A stretch of DNA of 19,701 nt from Nitrososphaeraceae archaeon (GCA_035250975.1 DATFEP010000082.1:1-19701), one strand, 5' to 3'. Counted from the first letter of the stretch, positions 347-6,077 are shown. Notes: generated by a model from the sequence alone, not told the origin. Made by a program: numbers and translations.

Positions 347-436
347 TCATTCATCAGCAATATTATCTATATCTTCAAATTCGTCATATTCCGCTTCAAG
401 GTCTTCTTCAAATTCACTTTCAAGATCTTCAGACAT
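347..436 (-). CDS. 29-aa polyacidic microprotein MSEDLESEFEEDLEAEYDEFEDIDNIADE (not in the ORF track)
   Basis: ATG at 436, TGA at 349-347 followed directly by a second TGA. 16 of 29 residues are D/E and none is K/R. A TATA-like ATTATAT lies about 25 nt upstream on the minus strand. Confidence 0.55.
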   Translation of the reverse strand: MSEDLESEFEEDLEAEYDEFEDIDNIADE

Positions 437-557
437 AAAAATAATTGTACGACAAAAATAATATAATCTTTTATAAAAATTGTTATCTTACATCTTTAAA
501 TTTAAGTGTGGTATTAGAAAATAATTTATAAGAAAATATATACATTAATAATAAAAT

Positions 558-710
558 ATGGATGACAATACAAAAAACATAGAATACAACGAAACAAGTT
601 CATGTGAATATTGTGGAAATCTTATAGAAATGTGTATGTGTGTTTGTCCATATTGTGGTGAAAGAAATTCATGTGAATGTTGTTTACATGATGCAGTTAC
701 AGGAGGATAA
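558..710 (+). CDS. 50-aa Cys-rich microprotein MDDNTKNIEYNETSSCEYCGNLIEMCMCVCPYCGERNSCECCLHDAVTGG; putative metal or Fe-S binding (not in the ORF track)
   Basis: ATG 558 to TAA 708-710. Nine Cys in the pattern CxxC-x6-CxCxCPxC-x5-CxCC, C-terminal Gly-Gly. TATA-like TTTATAAG at 525-532, about 26 nt upstream. Confidence 0.8.
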   Translation: MDDNTKNIEYNETSSCEYCGNLIEMCMCVCPYCGERNSCECCLHDAVTGG

Positions 711-761
711 TACAAATATATTTTAAACTATTAATAGAAAGGCATATCAATTAAGTACTAA

Positions 762-3669
<2,908 letters not shown>

Positions 3670-4218: not shown

Positions 4219-4869
4219 TTAATCCCATTTACTCCAGGCTGCCATCCATCGATAAGTCCAAGTATTTAGTTTAGCACCTAAAGCCGCTATCGGGACACTG
4301 AGTACCGCACCAGCTCCAGCACCTAAAGCCACCGGACTATTATAGAACTTACCGACCTGGGGTTCAATTGGTGTCATATACGGAGGCAACGTGGGCCTAG
4401 GATATTTGAATGCCATTTCTAACGGATCCTTCACCAGCAAGAGGTTTATCATATTAAATACTGGAAGAGACATTCCTACTAGTGTTCCACCAATTAGAAT
4501 TGCAGCATGTTTGTTTCTTCTTGTTGCCCAATATGTGAGGTCTAATAGCATTGCTGAAGGAATCCAAACTGGTGTTACTATGAAATCGTATGGATATCCC
4601 AAAGCGAACCATGCACCTTTCGCAACCCATGTGTATATAGTCATAATTGTAGCATAGTATGTAGCTGTACCTGGAACTCCCGTAAAGAGCATATAATAAA
4701 TCGCTCCTACCACAAGCATAGTAGATTGTGAAATAGAAAATACGACAAATGAAGTCCAAGCCCAATCGGTATAGAAGATATAGTCACCCGCATTGATTGT
4801 TAATAATGTACTGTTAACAGCAACCACCACTATGAATAGATAGTGCGTTGTACGTCGTAGCCAGACCAT
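4219..4869 (-). CDS. amoA: Ammonia monooxygenase subunit A (archaeal), 216 aa
   Basis: MVWLRRTTHYLFIVVVAVNSTLLTINAGDYIFYTDWAWTSF ... WTYRWMAAWSKWD is the canonical AOA AmoA. Start moved from 4884 to 4869 because of the canonical MVWLRR N-terminus and TATA spacing. Confidence 0.99.
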   Translation of the reverse strand: MVWLRRTTHYLFIVVVAVNSTLLTINAGDYIFYTDWAWTSFVVFSISQSTMLVVGAIYYMLFTGVPGTATYYATIMTIYTWVAKGAWFALGYPYDFIVTPVWIPSAMLLDLTYWATRRNKHAAILIGGTLVGMSLPVFNMINLLLVKDPLEMAFKYPRPTLPPYMTPIEPQVGKFYNSPVALGAGAGAVLSVPIAALGAKLNTWTYRWMAAWSKWD

Positions 4870-4892
4870 TAACAACCTACGCATGAATGTTG

Positions 4893-4976: not shown

Positions 4977-5032
4977 AAACCTAGAAAATTGTGTTATTAA
5001 AATAAAAAATTAAGGTTAATGGGAAAAATTAT

Positions 5033-5329
5033 TTATGGACGAACTGGCATCTTTTCGCCTGCAACTTTCATAATAAAGATAATTCCCAATACTTCTATGA
5101 CAGTTAAAACCGATAATGCAAACATTCCACTAGGTAAAGGGTACGCCCATGGATATACAGTGACACCAACATATATACCACCTGCAGTCGCGACCCAACA
5201 TAAAATGAAGCCTAAAATGAAAATTCCTCTCATGTTTTCAACTCTACGGCCGATCATGCGCTCTATTTCATCACGATTGCCACCATCAATTCTTCCCCCA
5301 CCGCTCGTATATCCTTTTGGTAAAGTCAT
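5033..5329 (-). CDS. amoX: Ammonia monooxygenase subunit X (AOA-specific small membrane subunit)
   Basis: 98 aa with a Gly-rich N-terminus, the IERMIGRRVENM motif and two hydrophobic helices joined by YPWAYPLPSG. Lies directly upstream of amoA, the usual amoX position. Confidence 0.88.
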   Translation of the reverse strand: MTLPKGYTSGGGRIDGGNRDEIERMIGRRVENMRGIFILGFILCWVATAGGIYVGVTVYPWAYPLPSGMFALSVLTVIEVLGIIFIMKVAGEKMPVRP

Positions 5330-5353
5330 TTAATATGTATGTCTCAATCTGCC

Positions 5354-5519: not shown

Positions 5520-6077
5520 ATGATGAAAAGTGCATTAGCTGTAACTATCGCCATAGTTATTGTGATGTCCACTGCAGTTACCCTTATTCCAATTAAAGAT
5601 GCAGAAGGTCATGGTGTCCAAGCTCAGCTTCAAAGTAGATTTGTAAGAATTCAAGATGAAGCATTTTCAGCACAAACATTACAGACAGGTGAAGAACTGA
5701 CTGTAACAGGAACTTTACAGAGTCTAGTTAATAGACCACTTAGAGCATGGATTTCGCTCTTTAGTGAATCCACAAATGCAGGTAATAGATGGGAATTCAC
5801 ATCAAGGGATCCACCAGGAAATGTTTTTGAGATTCAACCTCAGGCTACAGTTCCATACACAGTCACAGCAAAAGCTCTGGAACCGGGTGTATATCATGTA
5901 CATACACAGTTGAACGTAGCATCAGTAGGTCCAGGGTTAGGTCCGGGACAGACTGTGCAAGTAAGTGGAGAAGCAATATTGAAACCAGTTCCGTGGCAAA
6001 ACGTTTGGTATCAGGTAATACTTATAGGTGCTGGATTAGGAGTAACTTTTGCGACTAGACCGTGGCAAGTAATTTAA
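5520..6077 (+). CDS. amoB: Ammonia monooxygenase subunit B (archaeal)
   Basis: Signal peptide ending AEG, followed by HGVQAQLQSRFVRI (mature N-terminal His31). YHVHTQL HxH copper-site motif, GPGLGPG, a C-terminal TM helix and FATRPWQVI. Confidence 0.98.
   Translation: MMKSALAVTIAIVIVMSTAVTLIPIKDAEGHGVQAQLQSRFVRIQDEAFSAQTLQTGEELTVTGTLQSLVNRPLRAWISLFSESTNAGNRWEFTSRDPPGNVFEIQPQATVPYTVTAKALEPGVYHVHTQLNVASVGPGLGPGQTVQVSGEAILKPVPWQNVWYQVILIGAGLGVTFATRPWQVI

Follow-up and report, generated by a model that had tools for sequence, protein, structure and literature searches.

The window analysed here is a stretch of 19,701 nucleotides from a Nitrososphaeraceae archaeon. It carries an amoA gene (4219-4884, minus strand), and the host is therefore an ammonia-oxidising archaeon. 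Close to the start of the window lies a short ORF that the initial annotation had picked out as a Cys-rich, Gly-Gly-terminated microprotein in front of a 2-oxoacid:ferredoxin oxidoreductase. We observed that the ORF, its Cys pattern, the GG end and the 51 nt gap to a co-oriented korA were all as described there. The ORF runs from the ATG at 558 to a TAA at 708-710 on the plus strand, and the ATG at 558 is its sole possible start because an in-frame stop is present at 552-554. The product has 50 aa with 9 Cys and a C-terminal TGG, in the layout C16-x2-C19-x6-C26-x-C28-x-C30-P-x-C33-x5-C39-x-C41-C42, followed by L-H-D-A-V-T-G-G and the stop. Its composition is 18% Cys, with three Tyr and one His, and 9 D/E residues against 2 K/R.

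The two genes that follow, korA and korB, overlap by 11 nt (Table 1). On the basis of their family matches, KorA and KorB are assigned as the alpha and beta subunits of an archaeal two-subunit 2-oxoacid:ferredoxin oxidoreductase (OFOR). In an alignment of 42 sequences, the invariant cysteines of KorB were C17, C20, C51 and C200. The region 0.5-2.4 kb downstream of korB contains amoA and a short Monooxygenase_B-like ORF (5520-6077, plus strand), with an unnamed 104-aa ORF (5019-5333) between them. A CopD-family gene is also present in the window, 17 kb from the microprotein gene.

Table 1. Features at the locus, with parts of the microprotein and the fused form found in one related lineage. Nucleotide positions are those of the window unless another locus is named.
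Feature	Position	Strand	Description
Promoter-like block	521..535	+	contains the TATA-like TTTATAAG at 525-532; from a 20-locus intergenic alignment
Microprotein gene	558..710	+	50 aa plus stop; from the ORF, family alignments, synonymous codon variation and RNA-library contigs
Microprotein, N-terminus	residues 1-15		variable, acidic
Microprotein, Cys8 core	residues 16-42		contains the CxxCG and CPYCG knuckles
Microprotein, tail	residues 43-50		conserved, ending T-G-G
Spacer, microprotein gene to korA	711..761	+	51 nt; short T-run and a second conserved A/T box at 721-740
korA	762..2711	+	649 aa, alpha subunit (domains III-I-II); Pfam POR, POR_N, PFOR_II; NCBIfam NF041170, 844.7 bits (cut-off 800)
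korB	2701..3669	+	beta subunit, TPP and single [4Fe-4S] domain; TPP_enzyme_C, PFO_beta_C; NF041171, 437.8 bits (cut-off 423)
NifU-microprotein fusion	L025 3761-4117 (G037)		protein cluster P0063/P0023; overlaps the korA start

The TATA box proposed in the initial annotation was recovered as TTTATAAG, about 25 nt before the microprotein ATG. It lies inside a block centred about 30 nt before the ATG, and this block was conserved in 20 of the 20 genus-level loci aligned, while the surrounding A/T-rich intergenic DNA was variable. Taken with the usual archaeal spacing between promoter box and transcription start, the position of the box indicates that the microprotein mRNA would be leaderless or near-leaderless. 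The A/T box in the spacer precedes the korA ATG by a similar distance, and korAB may thus have a promoter of its own. This matching spacing suggests that the locus is transcribed as two leaderless units and not as a single operon. With what appear to be separate promoter-like blocks in Nitrososphaeraceae, the microprotein and korA need not be made in a fixed ratio.

Contigs from one soil RNA library covered positions 584-707, and one contig of 850 nt ran from 634 into korA. These contigs weakly indicate that the microprotein gene is expressed and read through into korA, since DNA carry-over is possible in an RNA library. In the RNA runs X5, X11 and X14, the contigs began at about 776 and covered only korA/korB; as these are contig data, the gap over the ORF is uninformative.

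The microprotein family and its signature

We surveyed the distribution of the microprotein in several ways. A word-indexed protein search yielded 22 close short homologs, all of them labelled "hypothetical" or carrying no label. By a pattern scan with one genome per species, a relative was found to be encoded in at least 577 genome stretches (577 of the 599 candidates listed). The whole-genome search covered 40 relatives, 24 from the same genus and 16 from other families of the order. Twenty of the 24 same-genus genomes had a match at E<=1e-17; the remaining four, which are 69-90% complete, comprised two with no match and two with weak or partial matches only. Among the other families, 5 of the 16 genomes had a match at E<=1e-5. 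When 1.84 billion representatives were searched with the family profile, 354 matches fell within E<=1e-3, of which 56 also reached E<=1e-10, and the short ones spanned the full profile.

Some of the longer matches were rejected. The long representatives matching in several stretches are generic zinc-ribbon repeats that align only to profile positions of about 6-36 (the knuckle region), and four longer "fused" relatives were miscalls of an upstream start. The 150 representative matches listed, of the 354 counted, included no real fusion of the domain to either KorA or KorB. One 131-aa database protein (P0099) begins as the microprotein, leaves the frame after C-E-C and continues into the KorA N-terminus; this looks like a frameshift or assembly error and not a true fusion.

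The codon usage of the core was examined in 83 distinct core DNA sequences. Both TGT and TGC were used at every one of the invariant Cys positions, Pro31 and Gly34 were each encoded by all four codons, and Tyr32 by both of its codons. Mixed synonymous codons at invariant residues mean that selection acts on the protein, and not on the DNA or RNA. The microprotein ORF is thus a real gene under protein-level selection.

The alignment of 85 diverse members gave a clear signature for the family, consisting of eight near-invariant Cys residues in the pattern C-x2-C-x6-C-x-C-x-C-x2-C-x5-C-x-C and a near-invariant C-terminal T-G-G(-G). C19, C28, C30 and C33 were invariant, while C16, C26, C39, C41, T48, G49 and G50 were each at least 90% conserved. 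The ninth Cys of the window protein is not part of the signature, as position 42 varied between C, A and V. In the close relatives (23 sequences), G20, N21, P31, Y32 and G34 were also invariant. The pattern contains two knuckles, CxxCG (CEYCG in the window protein, 16-20) and CPYCG (30-34), with 9 residues between them, and the four further Cys form one C-x-C pair inside the ribbon (26/28) and one behind it (39/41). The conserved domain is about 35 residues long and acidic: its net charge has a median of -5 and is negative in 76 of 81 members.

Proteins of this kind are close to a class already defined in archaea. CPxCG small zinc-finger proteins have fewer than 100 residues and two Cys/His patterns 7-40 residues apart, at least one of which is CPxCG-like (CPxCG, CPxCx or CxxCG) (Tarasov et al. 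2008, PMC2253796). With 50 aa and its two knuckles, the microprotein is a CPxCG-type small zinc-finger protein by this motif definition, and is predicted to bind zinc. It differs from the class in its four further near-invariant Cys, the C-terminal T-G-G, the strong acidity and a phylum-scale link to a metabolic enzyme. There was no sequence relationship beyond the knuckles: no Pfam family reached its cut-off, and the best match, Zn_ribbon_3 (PF13248), scored 15.2 bits against a cut-off of 27 (E 0.015, residues 13-36).

The other resources gave a similar picture. No NCBIfam model matched the microprotein, the family profile retrieved only chance rows at E around 2 from PDB sequences, and the ESM Atlas contained only "hypothetical protein" clusters. 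The members that were looked up in NCBI and UniRef were hypothetical or uncharacterised. A literature search of titles and abstract openings found no description of the microprotein. The choice of this ORF by the initial annotation as its best candidate for an undescribed component agrees with the absence of a curated family, a PDB relative or any database name other than hypothetical. As judged from the alignments, the microprotein is a member of a well-defined new family of acidic Cys8 microproteins of the zinc-ribbon type.

The AlphaFold2 monomer model had a mean pLDDT of 65, with 71-80 in the core and a mean of 55 over the last 10 residues. It contained one short helix and isolated bridges, with almost no regular secondary structure. 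A Foldseek search of the PDB with this model gave no match at E<=0.001; the nine rows returned, at E 1.3-8.9, were mostly RING- or C1-type zinc domains and carry no weight. A wide fold search with VIA-align gave no match at Z>=2.

The C-terminus was examined in the best 80 loci of the species-genome scan, where 34 ended in TGG, 44 in TGGG and 2 in TGE; a few distant members among the 85 ended in GGD. The terminal GG, which the initial annotation had proposed to check among homologs, is thus largely conserved. Its conservation bears on the possibility that the microprotein is a zinc-ribbon, non-beta-grasp carrier or modifier working with the OFOR. The C-terminal -G-G carboxylate would then be activated (as an adenylate, a thiocarboxylate, or an acyl or substrate adduct), as in ThiS, MoaD and SAMP, or the protein would act in the manner of LysW. 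LysW is a zinc-ribbon amino-group carrier protein, small and acidic, that uses a C-terminal Glu, and it offers a precedent for a small acidic zinc-ribbon carrier.

The microprotein resembles LysW in being an acidic zinc ribbon, and shares with ThiS, MoaD, SAMP and Urm1 a small size and a conserved tail ending in Gly-Gly. This tail is the low-confidence part of the model and probably flexible. One ThiF-type E1 gene is also present in the genome, on contig 43. However, neither the locus nor any of the conserved neighbourhoods contained an E1, ATP-grasp ligase or JAMM gene, the terminal Gly residues differ in number, and a third paralog type lacks the tail. A beta-grasp fold is impossible at this size, and there was no Pfam match to LysW, ThiS, MoaD or the ubiquitin family at E<=1; the earlier statement that the protein is too short for a ubiquitin fold holds for a domain of this length. 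Of the modifier idea in the initial annotation, the conserved terminus has stood, while the missing E1 gene at the locus, the two TGE ends and the varying Gly count speak against it. The carrier reading is unrefuted since the terminal GG is conserved, but we consider it quite improbable. If true, a LysW- or ThiS-like principle would be at work in central carbon metabolism, both in ammonia-oxidising archaea and in Bathyarchaeia and Methanomethylicia.

Linkage of the microprotein gene to korAB

In all 26 related loci examined from the genus and from five further families of its order, the microprotein gene immediately preceded korA and was read in the same direction. Within the genus (21 loci) the two genes were 49-55 nt apart, and in the other families the gap was 93, 56, 40, 18 and about -5 nt, so that in two lineages the gap falls to 18 nt or the gene overlaps korA. 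In the species-genome scan, 78 of the best 80 loci, a set that partly overlaps the 26, had the same placement with gaps of 30-147 nt. The two exceptions were a locus with a gap of 401 nt and one whose contig ended 105 nt downstream. Among other families of the phylum, the gene was upstream of korA in 12 of 13 loci, with proteins labelled Bathyarchaeia and Methanomethyliaceae.

The labels found across the loci included Nitrososphaeraceae, Nitrososphaera, Nitrosocosmicus, Nitrosopumilus, Nitrosopumilaceae, Nitrosarchaeum, Bathyarchaeia/Bathyarchaeota and Methanomethyliaceae. KorA identity to the window protein falls to 44-55% across the linked loci, and the linkage has therefore survived deep divergence. 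In at least three archaeal classes, the gene is almost always syntenic with korAB. With this, the three properties that the initial annotation had proposed to look for among homologs, namely the Cys pattern, the terminal GG and the korAB synteny, were all found. Neighbour clustering over 29 diverse loci revealed no other conserved neighbour beyond korA and korB except antisense shadow ORFs.

The co-occurrence with the enzyme was examined in 301 genomes sampled from the phylum, of which 142 had an OFOR alpha above the cut-off. Full-length microprotein matches were confined to the order of the window (44 of 44 genomes in family f13) and to 13 genomes of seven other families. All 13 of these phylum-level genomes with a full-length microprotein also had an OFOR alpha match at E<=1e-100, the match in one genome (G197) being below the family cut-off. 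The microprotein copy in G197 adjoins PTH2 and TruD, and not kor.

The enzyme was also found without the microprotein. In two genomes of the same order (G028 and G033) that have OFOR alpha above the cut-off, no microprotein was found upstream, and none genome-wide by profile search. At the family level, the enzyme was present in 12 of 12 genomes of f25, 19 of 20 of f26 and 12 of 12 of f44, and the microprotein in 0 of 12, 0 of 20 and 0 of 12, respectively; in f38 and f41, almost every sampled genome had the enzyme, and no microprotein was found. Since korAB occurs without the microprotein and the microprotein occurs away from kor, the microprotein is an ancient, clade-restricted companion of the enzyme and not a universal requirement for it.

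Extra paralogs unlinked to korAB were observed in Nitrosopumilaceae (L109, 3471-3858, minus strand; L112, 3498-3656, minus strand; L110 and L113; genomes G335 and G251). One type, with an end of the form ...A-T-G-G, lies beside genes for Lrp/AsnC-type proteins and stand-alone RAM (AsnC ligand-binding) domains. Another type has no tail, and the two types are in tandem in L109. The neighbours of these paralogs (Lrp/AsnC, stand-alone RAM domains, DUF6659 and unnamed proteins) were uninformative.

The genomic setting also bears on the suggestion in the initial annotation that the microprotein is a metallothionein. Metallothioneins are Cys-rich proteins with few or no aromatic residues and with poorly conserved non-Cys positions. 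A metallothionein-like Cu/Zn buffer would agree with the Cys content, with the CxC and CC motifs, and with a copper-dependent ammonia oxidiser as host, whose window holds amoA and a CopD-family gene. However, the protein has three Tyr and one His, and the non-Cys residues G20, N21, P31, the aromatic Y32, G34, T48, G49 and G50 are as conserved as the Cys; the C-terminal tail is likewise conserved. The constant neighbour is korAB rather than metal-handling genes, the CopD gene is distant, and no genomic link to metal homeostasis was seen. Moreover, the korAB linkage extends to genomes labelled Bathyarchaeia and Methanomethyliaceae, which are not ammonia oxidisers. This suggestion was therefore abandoned, on account of the conserved non-Cys residues, Y32 among them, and the korAB neighbour; we regard a metallothionein as extremely improbable.

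The position of the gene also recalls Brz, a small zinc-finger protein whose gene is directly upstream of, and co-oriented with, bop, the gene whose transcription Brz controls (PMC10117724). By analogy with brz before bop, and with a CPxCG-type protein in the same arrangement, the microprotein could be a small zinc-finger regulator of korAB expression. The separate promoter-like block is consistent with this, as is the placement of the Nitrosopumilaceae paralogs beside Lrp/AsnC-type regulator genes. The strong acidity (9 D/E against 2 K/R in the window protein, and the negative family median) is unlike that of DNA binders, however, and is unfavourable for nucleic-acid binding. In some lineages the gene overlaps or nearly abuts korA, and a fusion to NifU, seen in one lineage, would make little sense for a transcription factor. 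We consider a regulatory role improbable.

The NifU fusion and the relation to KorAB

A 118-aa protein in one Nitrososphaerales lineage, represented by 13 contigs, has the microprotein domain as its C-terminal third. The portion ahead of this domain matched the Pfam family NifU (PF01106) with 29.9 bits against a cut-off of 27, and its CxxC is kept. NifU/Nfu domains carry Fe-S clusters to client proteins, and the second domains of Nfu proteins have a client-targeting role. The fusion therefore points to a domain tied to Fe-S delivery, either to the cluster of KorB or to the domain itself. The likeness to Nfu/NifU carriers with a second, client-targeting domain is that of this one lineage, whose fused form retains the CxxC and stands in front of korA; unlike these carriers, the window protein has no NifU domain by Pfam. 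When the NifU part of the fusion was used as query against the other 126 loci, no NifU-like gene turned up near the microprotein.

The two-subunit OFOR is the sole enzyme of its kind in ammonia-oxidising archaea, with a proposed role in feeding pyruvate, 2-oxoglutarate and branched-chain oxoacids into metabolism (PMC13552627). In a 2026 review, the characterised archaeal enzymes of the family are described as exclusively two- or four-subunit, and the terms 'zinc', 'Nitroso', 'Thaumarch', 'accessory' and 'additional subunit' do not occur (PMC13768988). The same review mentions a bacterial epsilon subunit of OFORs that has no known role, and the polyferredoxin PorE, which is encoded in the operon (PMC13768988). 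For the two-subunit enzyme of Sulfolobus, a structural study reports that domain V is absent, leaving a large pocket fit for an external ferredoxin, and that the sole [4Fe-4S] cluster is near the surface of the pocket and was oxidatively lost during crystallisation (PMC5020499).

The microprotein resembles the delta subunit, or domain V, of other OFORs in that it is small and rich in Cys, is encoded next to the catalytic subunits, and has eight conserved Cys as in a two-cluster ferredoxin. We rejected its assignment as a delta subunit or ferredoxin, as the Cys spacing differs, the Cys span only 26 residues and there was no Fer4 match at E<=1. Alternatively, the microprotein could act on its own as a mini redox carrier, holding either a rubredoxin-like Fe(Cys)4 site or a small Fe-S site and accepting electrons from the KorAB cluster in place of, or ahead of, ferredoxin. 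Knuckles of the CxxCG/CPxCG type also occur in rubredoxins, and the CPxCG motif search cross-detected both rubredoxins and ferredoxins (PMC2253796). The microprotein is acidic like ferredoxins, its own promoter-like block is consistent with an output exceeding that of the enzyme, and a NifU fusion could load a cluster onto the domain itself. PorE, in the account of the review cited above, would be a precedent for an extra redox protein encoded in the operon.

Against such a carrier, eight Cys within 26 residues are spaced unlike those of a classical ferredoxin, and no rubredoxin match was found in Pfam either, even at E<=1. The conserved C-terminal T-G-G would be left with no role, and the data do not tell Fe from Zn. 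We therefore regard the redox carrier as unlikely, though a realistic possibility.

The reading that we favour is that the microprotein is a metal-binding accessory or maturation partner of KorAB, and we give it an even chance of being correct. It is suggested by the synteny, the tight spacing or overlap with korA, the NifU fusion, the co-occurrence with the enzyme and an acidic charge like that of ferredoxins. Counted against it are the promoter block of its own, the occurrence of KorAB without the microprotein and of the microprotein off kor, the lack of a fusion to KorA or KorB in the matches listed, and the only moderate mean pLDDT of the model. Of the three readings in the initial annotation, the mini Zn or Fe-S partner is thus the one retained, on the strength of the synteny and of the NifU fusion overlapping korA.

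As such a partner, the microprotein would fold its 26-residue core around two metal sites, formed by the two knuckles together with the C-x-C pairs at 26/28 and 39/41. These would most simply be two Zn(Cys)4 sites, with Zn the likeliest metal and Fe possible. The compact acidic module, with a flexible tail ending in a free -T-G-G carboxylate, would then dock on KorAB, either as an accessory subunit or as a maturation or protection factor for the single, surface-near [4Fe-4S] cluster. The module may sit in the pocket that stands vacant because these enzymes lack the ferredoxin-like domain V, and all the observations would agree with a small acidic partner that fills, shields or maintains the cluster site. 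A complex prediction for KorA, KorB (1-300) and the microprotein, with a 42-row alignment for each, gave a score of 0.00 (mark 0.32), the partner's own fold being uncertain, an outcome with no bearing on binding either way.

If the partner reading is true, the expression, purification and modelling of these enzymes would have to allow for a third, unannotated component that is conserved in lineages ranging from Nitrososphaeraceae to Bathyarchaeia. Such a partner could also shed light on how aerobes manage to run an Fe-S enzyme that is sensitive to oxygen. Archaea have many zinc-finger microproteins, and among them this family would offer a clean and testable case, with a defined partner and a defined signature (Cys8 and the terminal T-G-G), and the natural fusion to NifU points it toward Fe-S biology.

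A second conserved micro-ORF was observed at the locus (350-436, minus strand), divergent from the Cys-rich gene and about 120 nt upstream of it. It is below the usual gene-calling cut-offs and encodes 29 aa, about two thirds of which are D/E. By tblastn, it was present at the equivalent place in 41 of 128 loci, all from the genus of the window or from close Nitrososphaeraceae.
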